Virus genome (UHGV): UHGV-1370141
Direction: 5' to 3' (one strand)
Length of the DNA stretch: 64,000 bases
Source: a virus
The notes under the pieces were generated by a model. The model saw only the letters and a list, made by a program, of their open reading frames with translations, was not told the DNA's origin and searched no databases. This document shows, one piece after another, positions 16,742 through 53,242 of this stretch. Each line of letters begins with the position of its first letter. Position 1 is the first letter of the stretch. The translations under genes and the position numbers were made by a program.

Positions 16742-17293
16742 TTACTGCACGCACAAAATTTGACCTGAGTATTCTAAGGGACTTTCTGCAAACGTCCTGA
16801 TTTGTCGGCAAATCACATCGACTTCAGGTTCGTTCGTCCGCGTATAAATTGCGGTCCCGCCCTTTAACACCCACTCACGGCAATTACGACCATAATCGTC
16901 AACCAACAATCTTCCCTTCTCCGCGTAGGTCGCTTTCTCCGCAGAGGAAGTTGTCACGATGACTTTATGGCCAGGGATACCGAAGTGTTTTTCGAAGAAT
17001 AATTTTTTGCTTTCTACAACACGGTCGTGGTCGAAATGATCTTCTGAACCTGACGTTAAAATCGCCCAACATTCTCCCAGACTTTCTACTGTTTCGAGGA
17101 TTTTAACGGCCTCGGGTATCGGGTCTAGTTTATAAAAAAGATCCGGGTCGTTTAAATAGATTTCCCGCATCAAAGCACGACGATGCAACTCTGGCATTCC
17201 GTGAAATTCTTCTATACTCATTCCTTTAAGGTGGTGTTCCAAAACGTAACCACGCCAGTTTGCGAAAACGCCGTCGCTGTCTAAATTAAACAT
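16742..17293 (-). CDS. HAD-superfamily 5'(3')-deoxyribonucleotidase-like protein (183 aa)
   Basis: N-terminal HAD motif I (LDSDGV = DxDGV), later LTSGS and LLVDD motifs. Confidence 0.45.
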   Translation of the reverse strand: MFNLDSDGVFANWRGYVLEHHLKGMSIEEFHGMPELHRRALMREIYLNDPDLFYKLDPIPEAVKILETVESLGECWAILTSGSEDHFDHDRVVESKKLFFEKHFGIPGHKVIVTTSSAEKATYAEKGRLLVDDYGRNCREWVLKGGTAIYTRTNEPEVDVICRQIRTFAESPLEYSGQILCVQ

Positions 17294-18338: not shown

Positions 18339-19142
18339 TTACCACTTCCCGTTCCCTAAGCCCATAACACGCAGGTTGGTGCGTTTGTTGGCAATTGCCA
18401 GATACTCCTGAGCTAAAGCACGGACTTCACCACGACGGGATTCCGTTGCGATAGTTGAAGTGGTGTTTGGATTACGCAGGATGTCTTCCAGCGCCTGAAG
18501 CGACACACGGCGGTCCAGCAGGACACGGGTAGATTCCTGAGCCACTTTGCTACCACGCTGAATCGCGGAGTATTTGTTGCAAATCTGAAGCCCATCTTCG
18601 ATAACCCAGTCGAAGGTGACCAGACGATCCAGACGACGCGTTTTCACCCCACCAACATACCCTTCACGTACGATAGCACGCAGAGAGAAGCAAACGTTTT
18701 GATGTGGATTCTCTAACGCTTCTGCCAGATACGGACCACGTTCACGGTTCGGTTTAATCCAGCCCCAGATTTCCATTACCGGCAAACCATTACAGGTCTG
18801 GTCGGTCGGAATAACTTCAACTTCACGAATGTGCATACAGACGTTTTTCGTCTCAATCCATTCGTTACGGTCAATCCACTGCGCTTCGGTCATTCCCGGT
18901 TCTGGTGCAGGGTGGTCTTCTTCCCCGAACAGGTTACCGGCTTTTACTTTACGCATGAAAATGTTAGAGCGTTCGAATACGTGCTTAGACTCGTTATAGG
19001 CGTAGAAAATCCCTTCCGAGTTAAAAATATTCAGAGCACCCAATAATACGCGGTAATAACCATCCGCGTCTTTCTCCAGAGTAGCTGGAGCATTAACACC
19101 GGCTAACGCTACGCAATTGTAACGTAGGGTCAAGTTGTCCAT
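18339..19142 (-). CDS. hypothetical protein (267 aa)
   Basis: ORF abutting 17700..18338. Confidence 0.5.
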   Translation of the reverse strand: MDNLTLRYNCVALAGVNAPATLEKDADGYYRVLLGALNIFNSEGIFYAYNESKHVFERSNIFMRKVKAGNLFGEEDHPAPEPGMTEAQWIDRNEWIETKNVCMHIREVEVIPTDQTCNGLPVMEIWGWIKPNRERGPYLAEALENPHQNVCFSLRAIVREGYVGGVKTRRLDRLVTFDWVIEDGLQICNKYSAIQRGSKVAQESTRVLLDRRVSLQALEDILRNPNTTSTIATESRRGEVRALAQEYLAIANKRTNLRVMGLGNGKW

Positions 19143-19173: not shown

Positions 19174-19908
19174 TTACCTCATAAACAAATCTTCGAGCGG
19201 TTCGGCACGTACCGGGTCAACTTGTAGCGCAGAACGAATACCACGTTTCAGTTCTACGTCAGCAAGCTTCGCCAGTCTCGACGTTTTGTTAAGAGACCCA
19301 CTACGTAGTGGGATGAATTGGACAGGGTTGTTTAAGTCACTGTCTTTTTTCAGTGTATAACGGAAAAACGTTTTTGGATCACCCACTTTACGCTGCGTGT
19401 GTGCAGCATAAACGTCAGCGGTAATCTGGTCGGCAAATACAGTAAAACCGTTCCATCGCTTTACCTTATCCGGTGCTAATAGTTCAGCATCGTCGTAAGC
19501 GGTAAACCAGAAAGGACGGTTACCAAAGTCGTAAATATACGACGCAATGTTGTATATCGGTGCGGACAACACCTGTAAATTGCGGTTGGGGAAAACCACT
19601 GTGCCGGGGTCAAAACGAAATTCGTAATAAGGGACGCCAAAGACGTCAATCTCTTCAAACGCCGTTGGGGTAATCTCAATCAGTGTTGTGACACTGGAAA
19701 CCCCGTAAGTTTTACGGTCCGTTGAGATAGCAAAAATACCTACAATCGTTACCGTAGAAGAAATAACCGCCAACTCTTTCGCCACAAACCCAACGGGGAT
19801 GTAAATGTAACATCCCCCTTTGGTAGTGGTGACCGTGCCGTTATTTACCAAGTCCGCATGAATCTTAGTGGGATCACGACGGGCTGTTTCAATCGCACTC
19901 ACGATCAC
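19174..19908 (-). CDS. hypothetical protein (244 aa), possibly structural
   Basis: ORF. Confidence 0.5.
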   Translation of the reverse strand: MIVSAIETARRDPTKIHADLVNNGTVTTTKGGCYIYIPVGFVAKELAVISSTVTIVGIFAISTDRKTYGVSSVTTLIEITPTAFEEIDVFGVPYYEFRFDPGTVVFPNRNLQVLSAPIYNIASYIYDFGNRPFWFTAYDDAELLAPDKVKRWNGFTVFADQITADVYAAHTQRKVGDPKTFFRYTLKKDSDLNNPVQFIPLRSGSLNKTSRLAKLADVELKRGIRSALQVDPVRAEPLEDLFMR

Positions 19909-21670: not shown

Positions 21671-21692
21671 TCTCTACTCCGGAGTTTATCAG

Positions 21693-21711
21693 GGTGGGAG
21701 CGACCCACCCC
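21693..21711 (-). other. GC stem-loop (gggtggg / cccaccc) between the 1388-aa gene stop and the next SD; no U-run
   Basis: 7-bp perfect inverted repeat. Confidence 0.35.
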
Positions 21712-21717
21712 TTGAGA

Positions 21718-24700
21718 TTATTTAAGTGTCGCTGGTAACTCAGGCACGGACTCGCCGTCGAGGATACGACCGATAAGAATCCCTGCTTGTTCACCCACAG
21801 CATTTGCGGTACCGATTCGTTGGATAGAACCTACGATACGTGCGTCGACAGAATCACGACCGAACAAAATGTCAATGTCATCGCCATCTTCTGTTTTGTT
21901 TTCCCCGTACATCACTTCTTGTACAGTGGTTTTCAGCTGGTTAGCAATAACCATCTTATCCGCTGCGGCCATTTCCACTTCGTGCGTAATAAAGAATCGA
22001 ACACAAAGCGAGTTAAAGGCTAACGGTACACCCTCTACACGGTAATCCCCATTAACACTCCCTGATACCGGATCGCCACGATTAACAGCCAATGCTGCTT
22101 TACGACGAATGCGATCGTATTTACGTACCAGTTCTGCCAGTGAAGGCGTCATGTCTTCGGTTTCACCGTGATATACGACTTCGATTTTATCCACGATACC
22201 ACGAACCCCAGCACGAGGCGCGTACGAACTTAAACTTTGCAACGTTTGTGCTGCTTCCTTACTAAAGGTACTCATATCCCCCGTAAGGTCGTCAGTAAAT
22301 GTGCATAGGATTGTGTCGACGTCAACGTGTTCCCCTTCGTTAACGATTTCCAGGAGCATCTGGTTGCTGTTAATCACCACTTCTTTCAGCTTAGTAACCT
22401 GCCCAACCATTTTCTTCGCGAACCGTTCAGAAATAGCATTGGAGTCTTCGATTACTTCTTCAGCTTCGATTAGAGCGACGGTAGCCAGCACCCCGTTTTT
22501 CCAGGAAACCTGAGTAGGGTCGTAGATATCGGGTTCAAAGTGTTGCTCGTTATAGGTGATGACTGCCCCGGCCGGGAGTTTGTCACCGGCTTTCCAGCGA
22601 GTCACCAGGGTGTGCGGATAGAAGGTACCTTCGTGGGGGCCGAACCAGCGCCCTAGAGGAAAGGCTTCTTTACTTCCATCTTCGTACGTAATTTCGATAT
22701 GGTCTTTAGACAGACCGGTGATTTTACCTGCTTTATCAATAACGCGTGCGTGTTTCACCGATGTACGGTGAGCGACAAATTTCTCCTGTTCGGTACGATA
22801 AGGGGTAGTGGTAGCGCCGTTGCAACTGGTGGCAGAACCTAACTGAATCCCAACGAAGTTTTGACGTTTAGCGTCGTCCATCAGGGTATCCGGCACGAGA
22901 CCGTCAATAAATGACAGAGTGTCGCTCGGCTTCAGTTTCTTTTCATCCCGTTTATAGGTTGTGCCGTCAACGGTATCAAAACGCGGGTTGTTGGTGGCGA
23001 AAGCAGTAATACCTACGTCACCGTTATCCACCGTGTTACCGGATACAATACCCAGGTCACTCGGTTGGAACTCACGCGTGTGATAAACCATTGTTTTACG
23101 GTTACGGCCACCCGTACCACCCATGGTGATAACGTCTTTCTCTTTAATCGACTGGATAGGGTTAGCACCCGGCGCTAACAGAACAGACGGGTCGGAGTTA
23201 ATTGCGCCCCAAATCATGTCCTGAGTAAGCTCGAACTTACGGTTACTGTTCGGTGCGTTGTTGTAGTTACGCATCGCCCTGACCATCGCAGTGTAGATGT
23301 GGTAGGAAATACGTTGGTTCCCTAAGAACATCATTTCATCACCGTTAATCTCCGGTAAAGAGTGGTCGGTTTGTAACAGTTCGTTAGAACGTTCCAATAG
23401 CCCGATAAAGGTTTCCGGTTCACCCATTTTCCTGAGGATACGTGCGTGCATGTCATCAACAAACGCGGCCCGCATTTGTTTCAGCTCGTTGATGTAGCGT
23501 GGAGTTAGCCCATCTGCATCACGTATTAAGTTCAGGTAAATGTCTTCGCGGTCGACTTCGGACTCGGTATAAGCTACCAGGTGTTTCAGGTACTTATCCA
23601 GACCGTGTAGAATCATTCGTTGCTGATCGTTATCACACGTTACCAGGAACTTACTGTCCTGGAGACGAATAATAGAATCGTACGTGCTCTTATCTACACG
23701 TTGGCCAACAGGGACGATTTCGTACTGAATACCGAAATGTTTAAGCATCCCTTGCAGACCTAAATAGAACGAGAAGATGAAGCCCAGTGAGAGCGATTTG
23801 CCCATCAGTGAAAGCTCGGTCATTTCTCTTGGCGCTTTCTGGCTACTGAAGCCAAGCACTTCCGAGATGGTACCCAGTGGTGTACACTCTTTACCCTTAA
23901 CGGTATAGAGCATGGACTTGGTATCCATCACCACAATAACTTCACTGCGCGGACGTTTCGCAACCGGCAACATCTCAACGTTGTTTGCGTCAGTAAGCTG
24001 TTCGTCATTAAAGAAGTTAACCGCTTCTTTATAATCGAAGTTCCACATATACCCGCCTGCATTGAAGCTGGCGATACGGCGTGCAATCTCCGTGTACTGA
24101 CGAGGAAGTTTCTCTGTAGGATCGAAAACGTTCGCGAGACGTGCGTCGGTGATCTCCGTGTTGGTCGGGTCTACGGCACGCGTGATAATCGCGTTCGTTA
24201 ACCAACGGCCGTAGTCGTTTGCGACTTTGTCACTACGACGTACGAAGTTTTTACCGTAAGCGGTAGTTAACGCTACGGTGTCTGGGGCGACCTTACGAAT
24301 CGGAACGTCTACACGCTGACGACGCATGGTGTATTCAACACCGTTTGCTACCCAGGTACCGTCTTCGGTTAAACCAGGGATAGAGAAACGCACTGTCGTC
24401 GGTTCACCACCAATCGGTTGAACACGCAGGGTGTGGTGTTCGATAGTTCCCGTAACGGAAACCTCTTTCTCGATCGTGTGGTTGTGAATAGCTAAACCAA
24501 GACGCTGCGAGCTGGCGACTGCTGCCAGCACGTCTTTACTCATCATGGTCTGGTTGTATTGTTTCACCATTTGGTCGGTGACGTTTTCTGCCCAACCTTC
24601 ATCCGTAACCAGTCGCTGGACTTTCTTCGGTTCCGCTTTCACGGCAATGTCTTTTTCGTGAATGGTTAATGCTTCACCGTAAGTCTCTTTCGGGTTGTAC

Positions 24701-25884
24701 GGGTTTGGTAACTGAACGAAACGTTTGGTCGAATCAGACAGGAATTGATACGCTTTGGAGCTTAAGCGGCCCGCCTCAGCCAGTTTCTGCGCTTCCTGTT
24801 TGATAATGTCATCGTGAGCAATCGTTTTTTCGATAACGATAGTCGTCGGCTTAACGTCTTCTTTCGGCTCCTCAATAACGAGGTCTTCTTTTTCATCGAA
24901 AGCGTTATCCGATTCAACCACAGCGTCGTTAACAACGTCTGTATCGTCAACGACGTCAACGGTATCCTCTTCGATGTCCTTAACAAAGATACGTTCATCA
25001 CCTTCCGGTGTCAGGAATTCAGCTTCGTAAGCATTAGACGGTGCTTGAGTCATTACACGCACTAACGTACGATAGAACATCCTGGCCATCTGGTCGTCAC
25101 TTAAACGGCCACCGGACGATTTACGCATCTTCTCCACGACACCCATGTTCATCGACGTAAAGCCGCCGTTGTGGGTGAAGATGAAGTTCATTCGAGACAG
25201 TTGCGTTAAGTCCATTCCCGCAAACAGAGAATCGGACTGTTTACCGTACGCCCAAGCGAACAGTTCCAATAACCACAGCAGGTTAAAATCCTGGAACTTT
25301 TCAATCTTGCTTTTAACACGATCGTTATACGTCGTTTGGAACTTCTGGAAAGACGGTAACGTTGACCCCAGCTCAATCACGAAGTAGTTCTGACGCATGT
25401 ATTCTTGCGTGTCGTATTTGAACTGGTTAGTCATTAACAGCTGGATGTTACGCAGTCTGTCGTACCAGGCTAGTTGAGTGTCTGGATAATAGTAGTGCGA
25501 TAACATCGGTGTATAGTTCTCAATAAGGAGAACTTTTAAGTCTTTACGAATCAGGTCATCTGAAGTCAGACGACGAATTGGACGGTTAGCGCGATGATAC
25601 GCAAAGATAGCACGTTCTTGCCCCTGCACAGGTTTGTTACGTGGATGCCCACTGATCCCTTCTTCGGGAAGTTTAAAGTGGTGGCGAATTTGTGCAGGTT
25701 TTTCCAACGGCTGGATGATTTCCAGCGTAGCAGGTGGCGCTAAGACCACCTGATCGAGATCCACGACGTGCAGTATGGAGCCTCGTGGTATCTGGAGCTT
25801 CTCGAGCGGGATAATCCTCGGATTACCAAACTCGTCTGTTTTACGCACAGAGAAGCGTTGGTTAAACTGTTTAATGAGCAGCAT
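21718..25884 (-). CDS. large protein (1388 aa) immediately downstream of the RNAP beta'-N gene; tentative second RNAP subunit, subunit assignment uncertain
   Basis: Adjacent and co-transcribed with 25888..27513; C-terminal block DKMVIANQLKTT...EVMYGENKTEDGDDIDILFG loosely resembles the beta-subunit GDKM...[20 protein letters not shown] region; acidic linker in middle. Confidence 0.3.
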   Translation of the reverse strand: MLLIKQFNQRFSVRKTDEFGNPRIIPLEKLQIPRGSILHVVDLDQVVLAPPATLEIIQPLEKPAQIRHHFKLPEEGISGHPRNKPVQGQERAIFAYHRANRPIRRLTSDDLIRKDLKVLLIENYTPMLSHYYYPDTQLAWYDRLRNIQLLMTNQFKYDTQEYMRQNYFVIELGSTLPSFQKFQTTYNDRVKSKIEKFQDFNLLWLLELFAWAYGKQSDSLFAGMDLTQLSRMNFIFTHNGGFTSMNMGVVEKMRKSSGGRLSDDQMARMFYRTLVRVMTQAPSNAYEAEFLTPEGDERIFVKDIEEDTVDVVDDTDVVNDAVVESDNAFDEKEDLVIEEPKEDVKPTTIVIEKTIAHDDIIKQEAQKLAEAGRLSSKAYQFLSDSTKRFVQLPNPYNPKETYGEALTIHEKDIAVKAEPKKVQRLVTDEGWAENVTDQMVKQYNQTMMSKDVLAAVASSQRLGLAIHNHTIEKEVSVTGTIEHHTLRVQPIGGEPTTVRFSIPGLTEDGTWVANGVEYTMRRQRVDVPIRKVAPDTVALTTAYGKNFVRRSDKVANDYGRWLTNAIITRAVDPTNTEITDARLANVFDPTEKLPRQYTEIARRIASFNAGGYMWNFDYKEAVNFFNDEQLTDANNVEMLPVAKRPRSEVIVVMDTKSMLYTVKGKECTPLGTISEVLGFSSQKAPREMTELSLMGKSLSLGFIFSFYLGLQGMLKHFGIQYEIVPVGQRVDKSTYDSIIRLQDSKFLVTCDNDQQRMILHGLDKYLKHLVAYTESEVDREDIYLNLIRDADGLTPRYINELKQMRAAFVDDMHARILRKMGEPETFIGLLERSNELLQTDHSLPEINGDEMMFLGNQRISYHIYTAMVRAMRNYNNAPNSNRKFELTQDMIWGAINSDPSVLLAPGANPIQSIKEKDVITMGGTGGRNRKTMVYHTREFQPSDLGIVSGNTVDNGDVGITAFATNNPRFDTVDGTTYKRDEKKLKPSDTLSFIDGLVPDTLMDDAKRQNFVGIQLGSATSCNGATTTPYRTEQEKFVAHRTSVKHARVIDKAGKITGLSKDHIEITYEDGSKEAFPLGRWFGPHEGTFYPHTLVTRWKAGDKLPAGAVITYNEQHFEPDIYDPTQVSWKNGVLATVALIEAEEVIEDSNAISERFAKKMVGQVTKLKEVVINSNQMLLEIVNEGEHVDVDTILCTFTDDLTGDMSTFSKEAAQTLQSLSSYAPRAGVRGIVDKIEVVYHGETEDMTPSLAELVRKYDRIRRKAALAVNRGDPVSGSVNGDYRVEGVPLAFNSLCVRFFITHEVEMAAADKMVIANQLKTTVQEVMYGENKTEDGDDIDILFGRDSVDARIVGSIQRIGTANAVGEQAGILIGRILDGESVPELPATLK

Positions 25885-25887
25885 TGA

Positions 25888-27513
25888 TTAGCCTTTTGGA
25901 TTCTTTAATAACGCTTGCGTCGCACGTTTAATCACGTTGTTGACAGGATTGATTTTGAAATTCCCGTCTGAATCGAACCAGTAGTTCTTCGAGTGTATCC
26001 AGTTACGGTTTTCCTCGAGTGCTTCTTGCGACATAGGCGCGTTAAGTGAACCGGTGTCACCATCGTAGTCACCCCCTAAGCCACCCAATCGTGACGGGTG
26101 CGGTGCCATCGACTCGACAAAGGTTGGAACCGACCTGTCAGGATAACTGATAGCTCCGTGTGGCTTTTCAGTCTCCCAGTCATCTTCCAGTTCTTTTAGG
26201 TATAAAGATGACGTGGTGGTCTCCAATCTTATGGTCGATGAGTACGTCGAGCCTCGACCGGTGACGGGATAACGTGTAACGAAACCGAAATAATTGTTCC
26301 ACAGTTCGTAACCCGATAAATAGAGTAATTCTACCAGGGTCATTCCGTGGACGTTTTTACGGTCAAACGTTTTAGGCAGTTCGTCGATATCGTAGAACAC
26401 CTTAAAATGTTTGTTGTCTTGGTAGACCAGTGCGACATAATGGGTATCGTTAATCATTAACGGTTGATGACGAAGCTCGCGAGCTTCCATCCGGTTAATT
26501 AATGTTTCGATGCCATCGTCCGTGGTAAAGGTGTCGTAAACACGACCCCCAACCTCCAAGAACTCACGTTTAAGCGTTTTGGTGTTCACGCCATAAAGGT
26601 TGCCATCGCCAGCACGAATGTTACCGAGGTAACGTTCACGTATCTGGTATTGCGCAACAGGTAGCAACGCTTTCAGACCCTGATACAAACCAATTTTGGT
26701 GTCGGTCGGTCGAATCGCATCCTCACGTCCCATGCATTTAGAGCCTGTGGAGAATGAGGACAACACGTTACGTGTCCCGTTCATCAGTTTACGCGACGTC
26801 ACTTTACGACGTTGGAAACCTCCTTTACCGTCCTGGATGTTAAAGAAGTACATCCAGATTTCGTTAAAGGTTTGTTGGAGTTTCCATCGTACAGGGTTCG
26901 TTAATTCAACCCGTGTAGCACGGTCAGGAATCGCCCTGGCCAAAGAAATCAAACGACGATATAACCCACCGATTTCCTCTTCCTGTTCCCTACCGTCTTG
27001 TCTAACCACCAAATCACGTAAACCCGCGGGTAATACGAGAACATAGCGGCTAAGACTCACGGGACGGAACTTCTCGAAGAAATCCACCGTTTCGTCACGT
27101 TGTAACGATTCGTTACGTCCGGGTTTTAAGTCGTTGTAGTGACTAAGGAAAAAGTTAAAACCGGTATCTGCGCCAGCGTCGCCAGGCAAAGCCGGTTCAA
27201 AATCTTTTTCTTTTTCGCTCCAGGTTGCGTAGCGTTTTCCAGAACAAATTTCTTCGTAGAGTTGTTTTAGTTGGAATAACGCCAAACACACCGTCGGCGA
27301 AATGATATCTAATTTAATATCAATGTAAGAAAACGTTGAGTCTCGGGCTTCACTTCCCGTAAGACCGAATATCTCCGTGGAGTACAACCCTTCAGGGTGA
27401 AAGTTTTTTGTCAACCCTTGAAAAGTATCTGTGGTCGTGACGGGTCGTAATCGCGACACAAGAGACTTGTTTACATTGAGCAGATAAAAGTCAACCCAAT
27501 TAAGTTTATTCAC
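25888..27513 (-). CDS. multisubunit RNA polymerase beta' subunit, N-terminal fragment (541 aa, split beta' as in phiKZ-like phages)
   Basis: Ordered beta' hallmark blocks: EIFG...ISP; VLVLPAGLRDLV...GGLYRRLI; GGFQRRKVTSRKLMNGTRNV; TRYPVTGRGS; catalytic GGDYDGD followed by NAPMSQEALEENR; GTG start with AGGAG SD. Confidence 0.75.
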   Translation of the reverse strand: MNKLNWVDFYLLNVNKSLVSRLRPVTTTDTFQGLTKNFHPEGLYSTEIFGLTGSEARDSTFSYIDIKLDIISPTVCLALFQLKQLYEEICSGKRYATWSEKEKDFEPALPGDAGADTGFNFFLSHYNDLKPGRNESLQRDETVDFFEKFRPVSLSRYVLVLPAGLRDLVVRQDGREQEEEIGGLYRRLISLARAIPDRATRVELTNPVRWKLQQTFNEIWMYFFNIQDGKGGFQRRKVTSRKLMNGTRNVLSSFSTGSKCMGREDAIRPTDTKIGLYQGLKALLPVAQYQIRERYLGNIRAGDGNLYGVNTKTLKREFLEVGGRVYDTFTTDDGIETLINRMEARELRHQPLMINDTHYVALVYQDNKHFKVFYDIDELPKTFDRKNVHGMTLVELLYLSGYELWNNYFGFVTRYPVTGRGSTYSSTIRLETTTSSLYLKELEDDWETEKPHGAISYPDRSVPTFVESMAPHPSRLGGLGGDYDGDTGSLNAPMSQEALEENRNWIHSKNYWFDSDGNFKINPVNNVIKRATQALLKNPKG

Positions 27514-27542: not shown

Positions 27543-30500
27543 ATGGCTAAAAAAGGTAAAGACGATTTCGATGAAATCGATCTTGATAACATGGACGACT
27601 GGGACGATTTTGATGAGCCCCCTCGTCAACAAGACCAATCGCGTAACCCGGTCATGGACACATTTCGTGCTGCCCGTAAGTCGGCATTGTCGACTATCTG
27701 GCCCGAAAATAAACGTGATCAGGTCATTTTAAAAGGAATGCCAAAACCGGCGTCTGACGCTTATGAAGGTTATAAGAACGTCAAAGCCGCAGGTCAAGAC
27801 ATTCTGGCCCATACGAAAGACGAGATTGAAAAGACCTCCCGCGTGGTGAAGGCACAAGCTCGTCAATTAGGCCCAACCCTAAAACGGTATTTGCCTGACA
27901 GCGTAACCCGTAAGATCGATAAATGGGCGAAAAGCGACCAGTACGATTACGGGAATTACGATCCTAAACAAGCATTAATGGATCGTGAGTTAGACACTGT
28001 TTTTGCAGGTACCCCACAAACACCTGAACAACAACGTGAAGTTCAGGAAGGAATGGTAGAAGACCGTCTTCGTGACACCATCAAGGACATGAAGTCTGAT
28101 GCGCTGTTCCAGACGGTTATCGGTATTGCGAAAGACGTTAACCTGACGACCAGTTTAAGTCGTGGGGTGATGCTTAACGTTCAGCGTAAACAGTTAGAAC
28201 TGCAATACCGTACGTTATTCGCGTTGCAAGATATTGCTAAACTTAAACAGGATGAGTTTAGCCGTAACACCCCGGCACTTGAAGCGATTGTTAAAAACAC
28301 CGCGTTGCCGGACTACGCAAAAGAGGAATTCTCTGAAGTTCGTTGGGCTAACGTAAAACGTAAAGCTGCCGAATGGATGAACCCCTTGCGTTACGCGGAT
28401 AACTTTATTGATCAGATTCGTGAGAACGCGAAGAAAAAGATTTCGAATATCTTCAGCGACGGACGCGGGATATTAGAACAAGTTCTGTCAATGGGTCAGG
28501 AAGACGACTTTGGCATGGATGACAGTTCTACACTGTCGCCAGAACGTCGTCGTACGAATAGCCGAGGTAAAGTCGCAGGGTTTGCCGGTGGTTGGTTAGC
28601 AAAACGATTCTTACAACCGCAAGTAGAACGTTTACAGAACTGGACACGCAGTGAGTTAGAAAAGAACCCTGAAGTCATGAAACGGCTTCAGTTGGCACGC
28701 TACGGGTTCGGTAACTTATCTTCTATCTCTAACTCGGCGATTGCTGGTGAGATAGACGGCCCACTGGCCACCGTCTTCCGTTTAATGCACGAGTTGGGGT
28801 TAGTGACACCGCTGCGTCGTGAGGGATTAGCTTTAGAAGAACGTTCAGCAGAAGCGTTATCCGCTGCCGCGAAGTTCGACCGTAAAGCGTATCTTAGCAT
28901 CACGGAAGTCATCCCGACTTTGCTGACGGAGATTAACAAATCTATTCGTCGCGGGTACGGCGAACACCACGACCAGGTGTACGATTTAACCACGCGTGGG
29001 ATGATTGACCGTAAAGTCATCGGTAACCGTGTCCGTAAAGCGGTTGCGAACGATGAACAGCGGAAGCGTTTACAGCAGTACATTAACGAAACCGTTGACT
29101 TTATCGACAAAGACAAAACCCTGGATTCGAAAACTCGCCAGGCGCTGGCGGACTATATCGAATCCCGTGCGTCTGAAGGTAAGGCATTCGACGTAGGCAG
29201 TCTGCTGAAAGACCCGATGCACATGTATCGTTACATGAATGCAAACGCGGTAGAAGCGATTCAGGCGGTCTTAGAAGCACGGTCTTCAGAACTGACAGGC
29301 GGTCATCACGAACTTAGCAATGAGATTGCTAGTAAGATTTCAGCCATTCAGTCAACGATACGTGCACGTCAAAACACGGTAGACGAAGCTTCAATTATCT
29401 ACGGTGAGAATGCGTTACGTGACGCAGGTATCTTTAAGTACGATGCGAAGAACGATCGGTTTGATGTAGATAAAGACATTAACGATCCGTATACGCTATA
29501 CAACGACCTGGCCATGGGGAAAACCCGTTCCGGTCGTTCGTTAACGCGTGAACAAGAAATCCAGCGCAAACTGAAAAACGGTTCTGCGCTAGGTGACTAC
29601 TTACGTCGTTTAGGGGTAGACGCTTCCGTAACCGGTGACGAGTCGACTATTGACACCGTTAAAGGTAAAGGTGGACGTGGTGGTCGTGGGCTGTCGGCAC
29701 GACAACTTGCTGCTGTCCTCTACGGTGAAAAATCCACCAACTTTGTTGAACTGTTAAGCGAACGGCCTGACACTAATGCGGGTTTAGAGCAACAGTTTGA
29801 TAGAATCGTTGATGCTATCCGTAACAAATCCGAATCCAACACCGTGCAGGAAATTCTGAAACATGTTAAGAACATGGATGAGGAAGGCATCCTGCTGGCC
29901 AGCTTAGGTGGTGGTCGTGACGGTGAGGGTGACGCATCTGAAGACGCGGGTAGTACCGGTAACAAACGCAAACGTAAGCGCATTGTGCTTGGTGAAAGTG
30001 GGCTGTTCCGTCGTTGGGCGGGCGTACTTTGGGACACCGGTACGGGTGCTGGTCGTTTTGCGAAGAACATGTTCCTGAGAGGAAAAGGGCGTTTACAGTC
30101 ACTGGGCAGTTTTATCCGTGGGAAGTTCTCCGGTGGGTCTTCTGACGGTCCAGGTGTTTTTGAACGACTGAAAGGTTTAGTTACTGGTACGCTGTCCACA
30201 GGCTGGAATTCAGCAGTAGCGTTCGGGAAAGGCGTTCTTGGTGTTCGAGACATCTACGACGAGAAAGGCAATGTTGTTTTACAAGGTAGCCGTTTAGAGG
30301 CAGGTGAGTATTATCAGGCTGACCCTAAAACCAACAAGTTGGTACAACTCCGCTCGTTAGACGACATTAAGCTGGGTCGTGATATTGTTGACGAAGCCGG
30401 GAACTTGATTCTCGCAGCGGCGGACTTAGCGGCTGCGGGTAAACTGCGCTTCTATAAAGGTGGTAAGCTCCAGGCCCTGTTCCAGTATATCTCTGGTAAA

Positions 30501-33500
30501 GCAGGTACAGCGGTAAACAAAGCTGTTAACTTACCGAAGAAACTGATTGGTCTAATCTCACCAAGAGCAGCGTCTATCTTCGAGAAAGCACGTGAGTGGC
30601 TTAACGAGATTCCCGAGGGTAGTGAGAAAACGCGTTTACAAAGCATGATTTCTCGCGTAACCGGAATGCCTGCTCGTTTGTGGAACAATGCAAAACGCGG
30701 CTTTGAGAAATTCAAAGAGTTAGCGACTGACAACCCACTTACCCGGTGGTGGCAGAATCGTAAGGACGGTGGTTCTGGCGGCGGTTTCAGCATGTTCTCC
30801 TGGTCGAATGGCCGTAAGACCAACCATATCCTGATTCGTATCTATAAACTCCTTAACCGTCGTTTAGACGGTGAGCCTGAAGATGAATCCTGGACGGAGC
30901 AACTGGAGAAAAACGTTGGCTCGAAATCTATCAAAGGGATGCTTAACCGTGTTAAGGATTTCCGCGATGGGTTTAAAGACTATTTCCAGAATTTCCGGGA
31001 TTGGCGAGGCAGACAACGTGACCGGTTCTCGCGTTTCCGTCATGGTGTTGGCGATAGACTGTCACGTTGGGGTGCTGCGGGTAAAGGGTGGTTTGACCGT
31101 TTCCGTGGACGCTTTGGCGAAACGGTAGATAGCTTCCGCGATCCACGCTACGACATTGCCACACGTTATCGGACGGAGTCTCGTTTAGCAGGTCGTGACG
31201 ATGACGTTGCTGAGTTTTACCGTCAACACTTATACGCCCGTGGTAAGGTTTCTCCAACACGCGTGATTAACGCAGCGAAGGAGGATTTCGAAACCGCAAC
31301 GGATAGCGCAGGACGCGTTATCAACAAAGGTAAGCAGAAAGCGAAGAGTGTTGGTTCAGCATTACTGGAACGTTTAAACCGGATGGTTAACCTCCAGGAA
31401 ATGTCCTGGTTTAACACCATGCGTGACTCTGCGGAACGTGCTGGTGCGCCAGATGGCTTGATTCGTACGATGTTCAGTAAATTCGGACAACGTAACAAAC
31501 CGGCAGCCAATGATGAAAAACGCGACTACTTCCAATTCTTCCGTCGTCGTAGACGTTCTAAGGAAGAAGAGAAAGCCAAGAAATCCGCCGAACAGAAAGG
31601 ACGTAAAGGCGGGGTGATGGACTTCCTCAAAGGGCTACCGTTAGTAGGACCAATCGTGAGTATCTTAGGTACGGTGGGTTCCATACTGGGTAAAGTTGCG
31701 AAGTGGGGTATTTTTAAACCTACCGGGTTCCTTGGTAAAGCAGTGTGGAACGTTGGTAAGTTTGCCGTCCAGCGTTTAGCGGTTCCGGCGGTGACTGCGG
31801 TAGCCTCGGCTGCGTCTACGGTGGTAGCAGCGGTGGGATGGCCCGCAATTGTGATCGGTGCGACTGCCGCCGGTCTGGGTTATTGGGCGTATAAATGCGC
31901 TACCCGTGTGAAAGCACAGTACCTCGACTATATGCGTCTGGCACAATACGGTTTCCGTGACTACGACCAGTGGTCTTCTGAAGACGGTATGAAAGCCCGT
32001 TATTTAGAAGACGCTTTGAAACCTTACGTCTCGTATACCGAAGGGGGTGAAGCACAATTACGTGGCTTGTCTTCCGAGGACGTGAAGAAACTCGCAGAAG
32101 GGTTCGGTGTAAACTTAGAAGAACGTGGTGAGATGTTAGCATTTACTGCGTTTATGCTACAACGTTTCGCACCGATTTACCTCCGTTGGATTTCAGCACT
32201 GAAGTCTATGGATAACGATATCGCTTTGGCAGATGTCGGTGATCCGAAGAAAGTGTCGAAAGCGGATATGATTACCCTCTACAACAAAATGAAGATGGGT
32301 AAAGATTCTGTGGAATTCCGTTCGTTGACTGACCCGCGTAAAGTTAACCAGGGTTGGTTCTCTAAAGCGTGGGATTTCGTTACCTTTACACCGGCAGAGT
32401 TCTTGTCAGGGGAAGAGGTTGTCGAAGCACAGGAACGTGTGTGGCGGTCAATCAACATGCGTACCGACGACAAACGGAAACAACGTTCGGGTATGCGTGA
32501 TGCCGTCGAAGGCCACAAAGTTGCGTCCGTTGCTGAAACCAGTCAGGTACTGGCGAATGCGGATGCTGAACGTAACGAGAAAGTTGCGAAGGTTGAAGGT
32601 TGGGAAGACGGAACTGAACAGGTTCAAATCCAAGTTGACTGGCATTCGTTACCGAAGAAAAGCGATTTGGAAGACCTGGAATCGGTCAGGTGGAAAACCT
32701 ACGGTGCGGTTACTATCAACCAAACAACGCGTAATCTTTTCACGCTGTTAGAGAAGAACGTGTTGAAAGACATTGATGTGAAGAACTGTACCTATAAAGG
32801 CAACTGGAAAGAAGCCATTGCGGTTATCTCGCCTGACCTGATAGGTGGTCCTAAAGAGGAGCGTTGTAAGAACTGGTTCTACAACCGTTTCTTACCGGCG
32901 TATATGACCTACGTCGTTGGTCTGAAACGTTACATTCCGCAAGCAGACCCTACCGAATTGAAAGTATCCGGTGGGTTCATGTACGAATTAGCGTTGATGA
33001 TTCGTGGCGCTTACAACATGAAGGGCGGTATTCGTCAGTCCGTGTGGGAGATTCCATTCAACCCGCTGGGTGAGGAAGCAAACACTGACGCAGGTTCTGT
33101 TGCTACTGAACTTGCCAACCTGAAAGAACTGTCAAAAGAACCTGACCTGGCTGTTCGTAACACCCTGCGCTCTACACCCGCAGCAGGAAAACGTGCGAAG
33201 TGGCAGAAAGCCGATCGTGCGACGAGAATGTATCAAACCGACGAAGATACCAAAGATCGTTTCAAAGGTGTCGTTGATTGGGGTACAGCGTCTAACGATG
33301 GGTACTTGCCAAACGGTGGGTCGTCTTACGGTACACCGGGCGATCTGACTCAAGTTGTGGGTGAGATGGGCATCAGCAATTACGCGAAGTTCTCTACGGG
33401 CCAATCCGGGATTAAACTCGGGGACGTCAAAGAAGGTGATTACAAAACCTTGGCTGAGAAGTATCCAATCAGCAAACTGGGTGATGGTAAATCACCTAAC

Positions 33501-34676
33501 GTAGAAGGCGTTAAAGCGATGATTGCGGATGTCGCAAATACCTTAGGTGTTCCGCCTGCGGTCGCGATTGCGATGGCGAAAGCCGAATCTGATTTCAAAT
33601 ACGGTGTCAAGAACCCAGGTGCGTCAGCAGCAGGGTTGTTCCAGTTCATTGACAAAACGTGGTCTGGAATGATGAAAGGGTATTCTCGTCGGTACGGTAT
33701 ACCGCAAGTAAACCAGTATGACCCGTGGGCAAATACCATCCTCGGGGTACAGTTTATTCGTGACAATATCATGCAGGCGCAGAAAGACTTGGGTGGTGTA
33801 GAACCGCCTCCGGCTGTTGCGTATCTGTATCACTTCTTGGGTCCAGGCGGTGGTAAGAAGTTCCTTAATGCGTGGCGTCAGAATCCGAACATGCCAGCCG
33901 ACAAAGCAGAAGGCATTACTCCTCAAATCCTTAGAGGTAATAAGGGGGTCTTCTACGAAATGCGTGGCAAACAGATTGTTCGTATTCGTACTGTTGGCGA
34001 AGTTATTAATGAACTGAACCGCCGTATGGGTGCTGTGGCGACAAACGAAATTGCGGCTAACCCAGCTTCAACGAAAGACATGGTGAAAGGGCTAACGCCT
34101 GCGGTTGCCTCCTCTCCGGCGGTAGCAGCAGGGGCAGCTAACGATCCATCAATTTCTGGAGCGACGGATAACTTGCCTGCGTCCAATGCGGCGCGTCGTG
34201 ACGATGCGTTAGCAGAGAAAGGTGCAATGAGTGCAGACAACGTCAAAGCCGCAACCAGTGGTGGTCCGGCAGTACCGTCACCTGGCGGTAGTAGTGCAGG
34301 CGGCGACGCCTCTATGATTGGGGAGACCGTTGCAGCCGGAGCCAGAAACGAAGGGTTGCCTGAAGAAGATGTCGAGAAGGTGAAAGAAGGTGCTATGCAG
34401 CGCGTAGCAGCGACGAGTAAACCGGCACCTGCGGTTACTTCTGATGCACAAAACGGGCCTACACTCAGTAATGGTGATCCGATTAGTGTTCAGCAGTTGG
34501 CTGTTGCGAAAGAATCGGCGGGCTATCTCAAAGAGATTGTCACGATCCTTAAACAACGCCCGCAGCCGGTTCAAAACACTGTATCGTCTAAACCTACGGC
34601 ACCAGCAGGTTCAGCATCACGACAAATGTCCGTTGAACAGCCAGCACGACAGCTTAACGTTAGACGTGCAGGTTAA
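27543..34676 (+). CDS. giant virion-type protein (2377 aa) with hydrophobic segment and C-terminal lytic transglycosylase (SLT) domain; likely injected cell-wall-degrading protein
   Basis: SLT motifs AESDFKYGV (ES), GLFQF, AYLYHFLGPGG around residues 1950-2050; hydrophobic stretch near residue 1400; Ala/Pro/Ser-rich C-terminal tail. Confidence 0.7.
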   Translation: MAKKGKDDFDEIDLDNMDDWDDFDEPPRQQDQSRNPVMDTFRAARKSALSTIWPENKRDQVILKGMPKPASDAYEGYKNVKAAGQDILAHTKDEIEKTSRVVKAQARQLGPTLKRYLPDSVTRKIDKWAKSDQYDYGNYDPKQALMDRELDTVFAGTPQTPEQQREVQEGMVEDRLRDTIKDMKSDALFQTVIGIAKDVNLTTSLSRGVMLNVQRKQLELQYRTLFALQDIAKLKQDEFSRNTPALEAIVKNTALPDYAKEEFSEVRWANVKRKAAEWMNPLRYADNFIDQIRENAKKKISNIFSDGRGILEQVLSMGQEDDFGMDDSSTLSPERRRTNSRGKVAGFAGGWLAKRFLQPQVERLQNWTRSELEKNPEVMKRLQLARYGFGNLSSISNSAIAGEIDGPLATVFRLMHELGLVTPLRREGLALEERSAEALSAAAKFDRKAYLSITEVIPTLLTEINKSIRRGYGEHHDQVYDLTTRGMIDRKVIGNRVRKAVANDEQRKRLQQYINETVDFIDKDKTLDSKTRQALADYIESRASEGKAFDVGSLLKDPMHMYRYMNANAVEAIQAVLEARSSELTGGHHELSNEIASKISAIQSTIRARQNTVDEASIIYGENALRDAGIFKYDAKNDRFDVDKDINDPYTLYNDLAMGKTRSGRSLTREQEIQRKLKNGSALGDYLRRLGVDASVTGDESTIDTVKGKGGRGGRGLSARQLAAVLYGEKSTNFVELLSERPDTNAGLEQQFDRIVDAIRNKSESNTVQEILKHVKNMDEEGILLASLGGGRDGEGDASEDAGSTGNKRKRKRIVLGESGLFRRWAGVLWDTGTGAGRFAKNMFLRGKGRLQSLGSFIRGKFSGGSSDGPGVFERLKGLVTGTLSTGWNSAVAFGKGVLGVRDIYDEKGNVVLQGSRLEAGEYYQADPKTNKLVQLRSLDDIKLGRDIVDEAGNLILAAADLAAAGKLRFYKGGKLQALFQYISGKAGTAVNKAVNLPKKLIGLISPRAASIFEKAREWLNEIPEGSEKTRLQSMISRVTGMPARLWNNAKRGFEKFKELATDNPLTRWWQNRKDGGSGGGFSMFSWSNGRKTNHILIRIYKLLNRRLDGEPEDESWTEQLEKNVGSKSIKGMLNRVKDFRDGFKDYFQNFRDWRGRQRDRFSRFRHGVGDRLSRWGAAGKGWFDRFRGRFGETVDSFRDPRYDIATRYRTESRLAGRDDDVAEFYRQHLYARGKVSPTRVINAAKEDFETATDSAGRVINKGKQKAKSVGSALLERLNRMVNLQEMSWFNTMRDSAERAGAPDGLIRTMFSKFGQRNKPAANDEKRDYFQFFRRRRRSKEEEKAKKSAEQKGRKGGVMDFLKGLPLVGPIVSILGTVGSILGKVAKWGIFKPTGFLGKAVWNVGKFAVQRLAVPAVTAVASAASTVVAAVGWPAIVIGATAAGLGYWAYKCATRVKAQYLDYMRLAQYGFRDYDQWSSEDGMKARYLEDALKPYVSYTEGGEAQLRGLSSEDVKKLAEGFGVNLEERGEMLAFTAFMLQRFAPIYLRWISALKSMDNDIALADVGDPKKVSKADMITLYNKMKMGKDSVEFRSLTDPRKVNQGWFSKAWDFVTFTPAEFLSGEEVVEAQERVWRSINMRTDDKRKQRSGMRDAVEGHKVASVAETSQVLANADAERNEKVAKVEGWEDGTEQVQIQVDWHSLPKKSDLEDLESVRWKTYGAVTINQTTRNLFTLLEKNVLKDIDVKNCTYKGNWKEAIAVISPDLIGGPKEERCKNWFYNRFLPAYMTYVVGLKRYIPQADPTELKVSGGFMYELALMIRGAYNMKGGIRQSVWEIPFNPLGEEANTDAGSVATELANLKELSKEPDLAVRNTLRSTPAAGKRAKWQKADRATRMYQTDEDTKDRFKGVVDWGTASNDGYLPNGGSSYGTPGDLTQVVGEMGISNYAKFSTGQSGIKLGDVKEGDYKTLAEKYPISKLGDGKSPNVEGVKAMIADVANTLGVPPAVAIAMAKAESDFKYGVKNPGASAAGLFQFIDKTWSGMMKGYSRRYGIPQVNQYDPWANTILGVQFIRDNIMQAQKDLGGVEPPPAVAYLYHFLGPGGGKKFLNAWRQNPNMPADKAEGITPQILRGNKGVFYEMRGKQIVRIRTVGEVINELNRRMGAVATNEIAANPASTKDMVKGLTPAVASSPAVAAGAANDPSISGATDNLPASNAARRDDALAEKGAMSADNVKAATSGGPAVPSPGGSSAGGDASMIGETVAAGARNEGLPEEDVEKVKEGAMQRVAATSKPAPAVTSDAQNGPTLSNGDPISVQQLAVAKESAGYLKEIVTILKQRPQPVQNTVSSKPTAPAGSASRQMSVEQPARQLNVRRAG

Positions 34677-47035: not shown

Positions 47036-47711
47036 ATAGCGCAGAATCACGTGGGTCGACACCGACCCACTCTGCCATAAACCGGATGTGTTCCTTGAAC
47101 GGATTCACACCATCGCGTTTAAGCTGCTCTACCGTCTCTTTTGTAAGTTCCGGCGTTAGCAGGGCAGGGTGCGTAATGGTAAAGCTAGGGATAGGCTTTT
47201 TCAGATGTTTCGCATTGAGTTCAATCCAAGCGAACCAATCGTACATTATCCAACAATCCCAAGCTGTCGCTAAACGACCCGGCGTAAGTTCCGAATGCGG
47301 CCACGACACTAACTCAACCTGCACCATATCGTAATAGATACGGAACATCTGCAAGAACGTTTGCATTTCTTGGTCAGTAAGATCAGTATACGGCCAGGTG
47401 TTAATTGTCAGCGTCGGTTTTTCGATAGGCGAATGCATCTCGATTTCGAGTAACATACATTCGAACTCGTTCTTCATCGTCAACAACAGTTCGGTGGGTT
47501 CTGCATTCATCAACGCGCGTTTATCGCGTTTCTGATATTCCTCTTTCCAATTCTCAAACCCCAAGACAGTCGCCCATTCCTCCGTAAAACGACGACGATA
47601 AACGTCGTAATCCATAATTTCCAATCTTTCAGGTTTGATGGCTTTGACCCAACCGATTCGGGTGTCAAACAACGCATCGATATCAATCAAAAAACGTCGA
47701 GAAAATCTCAT
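46989..47711 (-). CDS. hypothetical protein (240 aa)
   Basis: ORF. Confidence 0.5.
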   Translation of the reverse strand: MRFSRRFLIDIDALFDTRIGWVKAIKPERLEIMDYDVYRRRFTEEWATVLGFENWKEEYQKRDKRALMNAEPTELLLTMKNEFECMLLEIEMHSPIEKPTLTINTWPYTDLTDQEMQTFLQMFRIYYDMVQVELVSWPHSELTPGRLATAWDCWIMYDWFAWIELNAKHLKKPIPSFTITHPALLTPELTKETVEQLKRDGVNPFKEHIRFMAEWVGVDPRDSALFSLARPKKDAQTPQS

Positions 47712-48376
47712 GACGGATGGCCTATGTTGTTACCAATGTGCATCGCTTTCAGATACGCAGACCAGGTACGTGTTGCTTTCGAACTGGTACGTTCTGCTCC
47801 CGGCAGGTCAATACGTCCCTTACCGGTTTGACGTAACGATTGATAGAACGCACGTTGTAAAGCTTCGTTACCCCCACGCGCCCACAGAAACTCTTTCAGT
47901 GTCCAGTCGTGACCATCGGAGTACATGATGTACGCTTCTGGGAAAGATACACCAGATGCTTTAGAAGGACCAACAACTTGACCGGAGAGTTTATCACGAA
48001 CTTTGTCGTTCTTCGCTACTGCCATTTTCTTTTCTTGCATCTGCGTTTGACGACGCGCAGGCAAGCGCAATACCAGATGTGGGTAGCGGGTACGATGGAA
48101 AACACCCGTTTTCGGCTCAGTTAACCACAATCGCTGTTCCAGGTTCAAACCTAAAACACGACATAGCTTAACGTTTCGCATGTGGTCGATTTTAACTTTA
48201 CTGCCGACCGGGTTGTAAATCGGTAAGCCTTCACGAAGACGATTAAACTGTTCGTCCGTCATTCGAGCAAAGGCTTTCTTTGCTGCCTCTGCGTTAATCC
48301 CAGAGGGGTCAACCAGGCTTAAGATTTGTAAGGCGTAAGCTTCTGCTTTTTTACGCCGCGCTGGATCGAGTTTCAT
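47708..48376 (-). CDS. hypothetical protein (222 aa)
   Basis: ORF. Confidence 0.5.
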   Translation of the reverse strand: MKLDPARRKKAEAYALQILSLVDPSGINAEAAKKAFARMTDEQFNRLREGLPIYNPVGSKVKIDHMRNVKLCRVLGLNLEQRLWLTEPKTGVFHRTRYPHLVLRLPARRQTQMQEKKMAVAKNDKVRDKLSGQVVGPSKASGVSFPEAYIMYSDGHDWTLKEFLWARGGNEALQRAFYQSLRQTGKGRIDLPGAERTSSKATRTWSAYLKAMHIGNNIGHPS

Positions 48377-51414: not shown

Positions 51415-52299
51415 CTAAAAACCAGATATAAAGGTGGGCGCAATCCATCGCCACTCCTGCCAGCGTGGTCCTGTCATTGGCCCACACCAGACCCGTTTCC
51501 AATGTGCCCTGCGTATGTGCGCTGCGCGATGAGGCGTTAAACAGATTCTCCTGCCTTCCCTGCGTTGTTTTTCTAAGTCTTCGCGTTGTACTGGACTTAC
51601 GTCAACAACGACAGGTTCTCTCCGTGGGAGGATTTCTGTATCAGGTACGTAACGTGTCGTTCTACCACGGTATTCCCGTCTCTCGCGTTCCGATTTCTTC
51701 ACCCGCGAGGAAAGATATAAACCGATATGTACCTCATCCAGAAGTTCCTCGTCCTTTGACTCGTTAGCAAAGTAAGGCTCTAAACTAACAAAGTCATCTG
51801 CCTTTCTGTTGAACCGATAAATCTTGGTTGTCCAACAGTGCCGCTGATTTATCTCCACCCATCGTAAAACGAACAATACTTCTTCACCTTCGAATTTACG
51901 ACGACCGATAAAGAGCGTAGCAGGAAGTTCGTTAATCTTGACAGTCACGGAAAAGGTGAATGAAGGGATGGCTTCAATCCACGCGTACGGAATATCCGTT
52001 AAACGTTCTGTGTCTGCAAGTAATCCCATCAGCTCTTTATCAGAGATAATTTCAATACCTGCGTATTGCCAACCCAAACCTAACGACTGACGAATAGAAT
52101 ACGGCACCTGTTTGGTGGTGCCGAACTCACGGTACGTTGGGTCGTTAACGGGCAGAAAGGTTACGGGAAGTTGTCTCTTGTGTTCCCTGACAAACGTTAG
52201 AAAACGATCTTCTTTCAGACCAAACAAGTCTTTGTGTGCAGTCTCTATAGCTTCACTAATACGTCGAAGCGTGTCTCCATAAATTCTGCGTCTTAACAT
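51415..52299 (-). CDS. hypothetical protein, member of tandem paralog pair (294 aa from ATG at 52299; track ORF extends to 52422)
   Basis: ATG with AGGAG SD 7 nt upstream; C-terminal motif AAHIRRAHWKRVWCGP...WIAPTF shared with 52310..53242. Confidence 0.55.
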   Translation of the reverse strand: MLRRRIYGDTLRRISEAIETAHKDLFGLKEDRFLTFVREHKRQLPVTFLPVNDPTYREFGTTKQVPYSIRQSLGLGWQYAGIEIISDKELMGLLADTERLTDIPYAWIEAIPSFTFSVTVKINELPATLFIGRRKFEGEEVLFVLRWVEINQRHCWTTKIYRFNRKADDFVSLEPYFANESKDEELLDEVHIGLYLSSRVKKSERERREYRGRTTRYVPDTEILPRREPVVVDVSPVQREDLEKQRREGRRICLTPHRAAHIRRAHWKRVWCGPMTGPRWQEWRWIAPTFISGF

Positions 52300-52309
52300 T
52301 ATAATTCTC

Positions 52310-53242
52310 CTAGTCTTGCGTGTGGGGTACGTAGCCTCGGACAAATGTCGGTGGAATCCAGCAAAGTTTTCTTTTTCTTTCACCGTTTCTTGGGCCAACC
52401 CAGTATCTACGCCAGTGTGCACGACGTATATGTGCAGCTTTGGCGTGTTTGATACCCTGCATGGCTTTCAAGTCGGTGTTAAATCCTTTTAGATATTTTA
52501 CTTGTCCTGGTGTGATATCAACCTTAACATCACGTTCTCGCGGTTTAACGTCGTAACTAATACTACCGTTCTTTTTGATTTCCCTGAACTTAATATCATT
52601 AAAAGACTCCCTGTAATTAGGCGGGATTAGCGTGCACAGAAATATCATCGAAGTGGCGGCTTTGGCCAGAGATAACCATAACATCTTCTCTTCTTCGGTC
52701 TGTACGCCAGTTGTATAATCAATTTCAACAAGCCCGTTTCCTACACTACGAAGCTCTAACGAACAAGTGGCAATTGTGGTAACTCCTTCTGTTAACCCGT
52801 AATCAGTATTTGTAGCGATTATAATAAACCTTTTCTTCCCATTTTTTCGATAGCCGAGAAAGAAAGTCTCATCCTCTTTACCTACGTCGATTGCCACAGT
52901 CCATGCGGGTATAAAGTCCAACCATTCTTCAGGGAATTTACTGGGCATCTCAGTCTCGAAAACAAGTTCTCTAAGTGCTTGGTTGGATATTAAGGAAACC
53001 CCGCCATATAGCCACCCGATTGCCAACGTTTGTGCGTGAAGGGAACGTGGATCTTTGAGACCTAACTCAGTGTCGTAGGGTATAAAGGAATTGGTTAAAT
53101 GGTTACGATTCTTTTTTATCCATTTCGAGACAGGATTTTCTTTTGTTTGGTTTTCTTCCATGACATTTTCTAGATGCTGACTCCCCATTTGTCTAAGACA
53201 GTCTTTAATACCTTTTACTTTTTTACTTTTGTACAAATACAT
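52310..53242 (-). CDS. hypothetical protein, member of tandem paralog pair (310 aa)
   Basis: ATG with AGGAG SD; C-terminal AAHIRRAHWRRYWVGP...WIPPTF and internal GWLYGGVSLIS blocks shared with 51415..52299. Confidence 0.55.
   Translation of the reverse strand: MYLYKSKKVKGIKDCLRQMGSQHLENVMEENQTKENPVSKWIKKNRNHLTNSFIPYDTELGLKDPRSLHAQTLAIGWLYGGVSLISNQALRELVFETEMPSKFPEEWLDFIPAWTVAIDVGKEDETFFLGYRKNGKKRFIIIATNTDYGLTEGVTTIATCSLELRSVGNGLVEIDYTTGVQTEEEKMLWLSLAKAATSMIFLCTLIPPNYRESFNDIKFREIKKNGSISYDVKPRERDVKVDITPGQVKYLKGFNTDLKAMQGIKHAKAAHIRRAHWRRYWVGPRNGERKRKLCWIPPTFVRGYVPHTQD

Follow-up and report, generated by a model that had tools for sequence, protein, structure and literature searches.

A gene pair in an SPN3US-like jumbo phage that very probably encodes two subunits of its virion-packaged RNA polymerase

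The 64,000-nucleotide (nt) viral sequence UHGV-1370141, the whole of which we call the window, contains two adjacent open reading frames (ORFs) of 541 and 1388 amino acids (aa). We hold it to be nearly certain that their products are two subunits of the multisubunit RNA polymerase that a jumbo phage resembling Salmonella phage SPN3US and phiEaH2 packages in its virion (vRNAP). Both products are homologous to cellular RNA polymerase subunits in profile, motifs and fold, and their orthology and synteny with SPN3US genes assign them to the vRNAP; packaging in the virion, ejection and early transcription would follow from what has been published for the orthologues. A preliminary description of this DNA had proposed a split RNA polymerase at this place, and both ORFs, their lengths and every motif quoted from them, including DKM...DIDILFG in the longer one, were found in the translations. 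The shorter protein is an N-terminal piece of beta' (beta'N) and the longer one is beta:

25888..27513, minus strand: vRNAP beta'N, 541 aa, GTG start; orthologous to SPN3US gp240, with gp180 as the phiKZ counterpart
21718..25884, minus strand: vRNAP beta, 1388 aa, ATG start; orthologous to SPN3US gp241, with gp178 as the phiKZ counterpart

Located 8 nt 5' of the beta'N GTG is an AGGAG Shine-Dalgarno sequence. As only 3 nt separate the beta'N stop from the beta ATG, the two genes are almost certainly co-transcribed and translationally coupled.

The 541-aa protein falls in phrog_2986 (3e-235 in PHROGs) and shares 86% amino-acid identity with SPN3US gp240. When a family profile built from 29 homologues, down to 38% identity, was searched against the Protein Data Bank (PDB), it matched beta' of the non-virion RNA polymerase (nvRNAP) of Bacillus phage AR9 at an expect value (E) of 1.6e-12, plastid and cyanobacterial beta'/gamma chains at 4e-10 to 1e-7 and Escherichia coli beta' at ~5e-7, and hhalign placed the family on E. 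coli RpoC residues 218-356 (E 1.3e-6). An AlphaFold2 (AF2) model of the protein, with a predicted local distance difference test (pLDDT) score of 80, gave 566 Foldseek matches in the PDB at E<=1e-3, led by AR9 beta' (7s00_d, 6e-15); all 50 of the matches listed were beta' or gamma chains. Against the viral structure library BFVD, the same model found phage beta' proteins along with giant-virus and poxvirus RPB1 homologues. Homologues of the protein are present in 324 deposited phage records, mostly those of jumbo phages of Pseudomonas, Erwinia, Salmonella, Vibrio and others. Together, these data identify the 541-aa protein as a free-standing beta'N module of the phiKZ-like jumbo-phage type, as first suggested, with the clamp and active-site double-psi beta-barrel region.

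The beta' motifs VLVLPAGLRDLV...GGLYRRLI, GGFQRRKVTSRKLMNGTRNV, TRYPVTGRGS and GGDYDGD...NAPMSQEALEENR are all present in its translation, the last of them containing the predicted active-site loop:

26056..26070, minus strand: putative catalytic Mg2+-binding loop DYDGD, beta'N residues 482-486, from translation and alignment

D482, D484, G485 and D486 of this DxDGD loop are invariant among the 29 homologues, as are R166/D167 (PAGLRD), G246-T247-R248 and V250 (NGTRNV), and T413, R414 and P416 (TRYP). Because these key residues do not vary even in relatives at 38% identity, the motifs are not chance matches. The second residue of the loop is phenylalanine in 20 homologues, tyrosine in five and histidine in four, the tyrosine being restricted to the nearest clade, SPN3US gp240 included, and DYDGD aligns with NADFDGD of plastid beta' and DYDGD of AR9 nvRNAP beta'. 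As the nearest clade and the AR9 enzyme share it, the tyrosine is not unusual in this family. The preliminary description had seen an unusual architecture in this tyrosine and in a fused or reshuffled partner subunit; that view overstates the novelty, since the residue is typical of the clade and the partner is a standard vRNAP beta with a known extension (PMC5105663). It was right about the ends of the protein: none of the only three cysteines (76, 90 and 260) is conserved, so the four-cysteine zinc finger of the beta' N terminus is absent, and the C terminus lies 55 residues past the loop (about 50 had been estimated).

The 1388-aa protein, offered earlier as a possible beta-like module, belongs to phrog_3148 (E=0 in PHROGs) and is 77% identical in amino acids to SPN3US gp241. 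We divide it into two parts:

21718..24849, minus strand: beta-homologous body, residues 346-1388, from profile, Foldseek and identity to SPN3US gp241
24850..25884, minus strand: beta N-terminal extension, residues 1-345, with a conserved domain of ~290 aa and then an acidic linker (~295-345)

A profile from 19 homologues yielded 21 PDB matches at E<=1, 20 of them beta chains and the other a weak match to ribosomal L7a. The best was Thermus thermophilus beta (1iw7_C, 5.4e-4) over residues 980-1104, and further pieces below threshold were in register with beta at residues 504-520 (IPLMTEDG...NG) and 1295-1385 (GDK...K). By profile, the homology spans residue ~504 (T. thermophilus beta 117) to 1385 (915 of 1119). 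Foldseek with an AF2 model covering residues 346-1388 gave T. thermophilus beta as the best PDB match (8w8o_C, 1.5e-16, ~1100 columns), and every one of the 50 matches listed was a beta chain. Profile and Foldseek comparison of AlphaFold models, which had been put forward as the check on both ORFs, leads in this way to beta' for the 541-aa protein and to beta for the body of its neighbor. The match to beta runs out near E. coli beta residue 1110; the C-terminal ~200 residues of beta are absent.

Two active-site blocks can be placed on the body:

21931..21960, minus strand: beta motif DKMVIANQLK, D1309-K1318, equivalent of E. coli beta GDKMAGRHGNKG (D1064, K1065, K1073), from alignment
22444..22449, minus strand: beta E1146-D1147 in EVIEDSNAIS, proposed equivalent of E. 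coli beta E813-D814 (NFEDSILVSE), from motif resemblance

In a one-sequence search, the DKM block lined up in register with E. coli beta 1049-1107 (E 0.01), and the DK...K register recurs in the profile match to T. thermophilus beta 822-915. D1309-K1310...K1318 is invariant in the 19 homologues, with K1310, N1315, Q1316 and K1318 among the fixed positions. DIDILFGRDSVDARI, the DIDILFG block, aligns with E. coli beta PVDIVLNPLGVPSRM, which confirms the weak beta-like resemblance noticed at first. E1146, D1147 and S1148 are likewise invariant in the 19 homologues; we propose that E1146-D1147 corresponds to E. coli E813/D814 from motif resemblance and the global fold match, the pair having no significant alignment of its own. 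We conclude that the 1388-aa protein is the beta subunit itself, made up of an N-terminal extension and then a beta body that lacks its C terminus.

Orthology and synteny connect this pair to a well-studied enzyme. SPN3US gp240 is beta'N and gp241 is beta with a ~400-residue non-homologous N terminus, and heads of a gp241 amber mutant lose gp240, gp42, gp218 and gp244 (Thomas et al. 2016, PMC5105663). Mutants in gp218 or gp244 likewise lose all five vRNAP subunits from the head (Ali et al. 2017, PMC5694885), and gp240, gp241, gp218, gp42 and gp244 are classed as head ejection proteins (PMC5694885). The subunits are essential; their assembly comes first, followed by packaging and ejection, and those knock-outs that were tested gave non-viable particles (PMC5105663, PMC5694885). 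The virion proteomics that the preliminary description had called for has therefore already been done on the SPN3US orthologues (PMC5105663, PMC5694885). The window shares with SPN3US the gene order (giant SLT protein, beta'N, beta, gp242, gp243, gp244, prohead protease), the DYDGD loop of gp240 and the N-terminal extension on beta; it differs in the lengths of beta'N (541 aa in the window versus 537) and beta (1388 aa in the window versus 1401), and the acidic linker of its beta is 13 residues shorter.

More distant systems fit the same pattern. The vRNAP of Pseudomonas phage phiKZ (gp180, gp178, gp149 and gp80) belongs to the same family of split beta/beta' polypeptides, and 80 records of Pseudomonas jumbo phages contain a homologue of the 541-aa protein at ~33% identity; identity is thus much lower than to SPN3US, and the phiKZ loop is DFDGD, whereas that of the window is DYDGD. 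phiKZ gp180, the subunit with DFDGD, co-precipitates gp178, gp149 and gp80; each virion contains ~10 copies of it, and it accompanies the DNA into the cell (PMC10612078). According to a 2026 review, the vRNAP consists of five or more polypeptides derived from beta and beta', has no alpha, sigma or omega, and acts on early genes within the early infection vesicle (PMC13282480). AR9 nvRNAP beta'N (7S00/7S01 chain d) is also a free-standing piece with DYDGD, and is the best structure match by both profile and fold, but it comes from a paralogous non-virion enzyme of a distant uracil-DNA phage and is 15% identical in the fold alignment. Cyanobacterial gamma/beta' and plastid rpoC1/rpoC2, which are among the top matches (8qma_T, 8w9z_C, 8syi_D), similarly have the catalytic N-terminal half of beta' as a separate chain; in these cellular enzymes, however, the split is further downstream (~620-690-aa chains), the zinc finger is kept and the chains work with alpha2, omega and sigma. 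The system is thus already known in detail: the tyrosine and the extended partner are family traits, and the window holds another orthologous copy with no new mechanism.

Two further genes in the window are candidates for the parts of beta and beta' that the pair lacks:

47708..48376, minus strand: vRNAP beta C-terminal fragment, 222 aa, counterpart of SPN3US gp218 (phrog_3233, 2.1e-93)
19174..19908, minus strand: SPN3US gp244 homologue, 244-aa ORF, proposed beta'C (87% identity to SPN3US gp244; phrog_2926)

The first lies ~20 kb from the beta'N/beta pair, and its product has the same length as SPN3US gp218. hhalign aligned the profile of its family with E. coli RpoB 1159-1311 (E 5e-5, probability 68%), a match that begins ~50 residues after the beta match of the 1388-aa protein ends. 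Because of this alignment, the 222-aa protein probably supplies the missing beta C terminus, as SPN3US gp218 does; its identity as beta C comes solely from hhalign to E. coli RpoB, since a single-sequence search of solved structures gave no match and an hmmsearch profile returned only artefactual designed repeat proteins. The 244-aa protein is the homologue of the fifth vRNAP subunit of SPN3US, which was defined genetically; that this subunit is beta'C is proposed on the strength of the literature. Its relatives are 240-242 aa long, and the true start is probably 2-4 codons 3' of the listed GTG. phrog_2926 is labelled "virion structural protein." A match of the gp244-family profile to a 233-aa "helicase loader" chain (8v9t_V, E 8e-4) was marginal and was judged to be probably due to chance.

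From these parts, a working scheme can be drawn. beta'N would give the clamp base and a double-psi beta-barrel whose DYDGD loop holds the catalytic Mg2+, while beta would give the lobes, the fork/flap and the second double-psi beta-barrel (ED, DK...K), completing the active site. The last ~200 beta residues would come from the separate 222-aa protein, and the remainder of beta' from a beta'M gene and, by genetics, the 244-aa gp244 homologue. The subunits would assemble before their incorporation into the prohead and be ejected with the DNA, and the ejected enzyme would then transcribe early genes independently of host RNA polymerase and of alpha, sigma and omega subunits.

Several observations weigh against this reading of the pair. 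Pfam found no family for the 541-aa protein at E up to 0.1, the Rpb1 models included, and in a single-sequence search of solved structures the protein matched beta'/gamma chains alone, but weakly, with a marginal best E of 0.061. For the 1388-aa protein, Pfam brought no RNA polymerase model to a reportable score, and a single-sequence search of solved structures gave no RNA polymerase match, only chance ones to laccase and ribosomal proteins. The beta model is of moderate confidence (pLDDT 65), with a 137-residue stretch below 50, and the fold-match template modelling (TM) scores of the beta'N and beta models are low, at 0.3-0.35. The gp244 homologue had no detectable similarity to beta' in a PDB profile search or in hhalign to E. 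coli RpoC, and a scan of positions 17700-63245 of the window, which leaves out the ORFs at 712-17293, found no beta'M gene. Packaging, ejection and activity are known only for orthologues in other phages.

These points can be set beside others. The weak beta'/gamma matches of the 541-aa protein contain the LPxxLR, GKxGxxR and DxDGD blocks in the correct order, and the beta' match becomes significant because the 29-homologue profile was used, the homology being visible only by profile and structure. Measured against a cellular-type beta, the 1388-aa protein has no Pfam Rpb2 match, yet the ED and DK...K motifs are present and invariant and the fold match is strong. Low TM-scores are expected because these are multi-domain chains modelled outside their complex. 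The beta'M gene of SPN3US (gp42) is far from the RNA polymerase pair.

The pair might instead belong to the nvRNAP, which is made after infection and serves middle and late genes. phiKZ-like phages have two paralogous sets of subunits, and the top solved-structure matches of the 541-aa protein are to beta' of the non-virion polymerase of AR9. The latter cannot discriminate between the two enzymes, as AR9 nvRNAP structures were the only jumbo-phage polymerase structures returned, with no vRNAP entry among them. Identity to AR9 beta' is 15%, against 86% and 77% to gp240 and gp241, which are found in SPN3US virions and are lost together from amber-mutant heads. The pair lies in a conserved block of head genes beside the prohead protease and the gp243/gp244 homologues, and the long N-terminal extension of its beta is a feature reported for the SPN3US vRNAP beta, gp241. 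An assignment to the nvRNAP is accordingly very unlikely in our view. We give hardly any credence to a second proposal, that the two proteins are degenerate polymerase relics serving as purely structural or ejection proteins of the head without catalysis. Such decay would agree with their going unrecognized by Pfam, the loss of the zinc finger and the large divergence from cellular beta and beta' (12-15% identity in fold alignments), but the DxDGD aspartates, the ED and DK...K motifs and the R/K-rich blocks of the active center are invariant in homologues down to 38% identity, and phiKZ infection is independent of host RNA polymerase, the injected enzyme transcribing the early genes (PMC10612078, PMC13282480).

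A further alternative concerns the extension of beta. Many of its residues from position 7 to position 282 are invariant in the 19 homologues, and residues 1-345 matched nothing in Pfam or in PDB profile searches. Since jumbo-phage polymerases have no alpha, sigma or omega, whose roles need replacement, a conserved stretch of ~345 residues without recognizable relatives could be taken for a module of another subunit (alpha-, sigma- or beta'-like) fused to beta by reshuffling. We regard this as highly improbable: Pfam and PDB profiles showed no similarity of the extension to any polymerase subunit, and in phage 201phi2-1 the equivalent N terminus is an N-terminal propeptide that the head protease removes at TFE-275 (PMC5694885), which fits a role in targeting or assembly better than one as a polymerase module. 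The SPN3US beta is unprocessed (PMC5694885), and head-protein processing varies among phiKZ/SPN3US-type phages (PMC5694885). A capsid-targeting role has been proposed for the vRNAP beta N-terminal extension (PMC5105663, PMC5694885), and our structure and literature searches turned up no vRNAP structure. A reading that we hold to be less likely than not is that the extension and the gp244-like subunit are phage-specific modules rather than fragments of beta or beta', which could serve capsid targeting, unfolding and refolding on ejection through the tail, or the replacement of alpha and sigma. Our preferred explanation for the pair itself remains the vRNAP of an SPN3US/phiEaH2-like phage.

The surroundings of the pair agree with that origin. 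The window comes from the genome of a jumbo phage in the SPN3US/phiEaH2 group (Seoulvirus/Erskinevirus-like, Chimalliviridae), and its gene order is that of phiEaH2 gp143-180 and SPN3US_0224-0264; around the pair, it corresponds to SPN3US_0239-0245 and phiEaH2 gp159-165. DNA of the RNA polymerase region is ~76% identical to that of Erwinia phages Stratton, phiEaH2 and Asesino and Salmonella phage SPAsTU, and nucleotide identity of the window to deposited phages reaches at most ~77% over the aligned parts, with no record in the collection of deposited phages searched covering 80% of it. Copies of the window's proteins that are 99-100% identical are found on ~220-kb contigs in assemblies of Salmonella enterica serovars Wangata and Chester, and near-identical ones in clusters whose members, sequences from sequencing runs, number in the hundreds. 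This phage appears to be an undescribed SPN3US-like jumbo phage travelling with Salmonella isolates.

The closest neighbors of the pair are head genes (an S80 prohead protease and the gp244, gp243 and gp242 homologues), together with a giant SLT-domain protein:

18339..19142: prohead protease, Peptidase_S80 (Pfam 1.1e-82)
27543..34676, plus strand: SLT-domain protein, 2377 aa, SPN3US gp239 homologue, with an SLT lytic transglycosylase domain at residues 1997-2082 (phrog_3201)

The gene for the 2377-aa protein is divergent from that for beta'N, with 29 bp between the start codons; its family, phrog_3201, is labelled "tail fiber protein." On the other side of the pair, a GC-rich hairpin (GGGTGGG-TCGCT-CCCACCC, at 21676..21717 on the minus strand) lies directly 3' of the stop codon of the 1388-aa gene and 5' of the ribosome-binding site of the next gene. 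It has no T run, and could be a terminator or an element of RNA processing or stability. Further away, the ORFs at 51415..52422 and 52310..53242, both on the minus strand, match phrog_6160 (function unknown) and are thus tandem paralogues; as listed they overlap by ~110 nt, and the downstream ORF has probably been given the wrong start.

The beta C-terminal module of the 222-aa protein also occurs in other settings. A representative library contained 602 relatives of phrog_3233, and in 31 of the best 150 the module forms the extreme C terminus of a much larger protein (396-2435 aa). Three of the five large carriers checked are SNF2-family helicases (P0264, P0239 and P0207), one with a DUF5662 domain; in the other two (P0206 and P0233), Pfam found DUF5662 alone. 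P0264 and P0239 had been considered as unsplit beta subunits, which they are not: BLASTP to the 1388-aa protein found nothing, and both are SNF2 helicases. One fusion is on a 91-kb phage-like contig (locus L004, 10001..14959), where the beta'N profile matched neither of two neighboring ~515-aa genes and a PHROGs scan of downstream neighbors found no RNA polymerase family. The fusions of SNF2 and beta C may reflect a physical link between such a helicase, perhaps packaged, and this type of polymerase.

Database names for the two genes vary. PHROGs and RefSeq call both of them "RNA polymerase beta subunit," and elsewhere the labels "beta subunit 4/5," "alpha chain," "RNA polymerase III large subunit" and "hypothetical protein" are used. 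The practical value of the present analysis is correct annotation, with the 541-aa gene as beta'N and the 1388-aa gene as beta. For the phages that carry it, the vRNAP lets nucleus-forming jumbo phages begin transcription without the host enzyme, and they thereby resist rifampicin and many host defenses.

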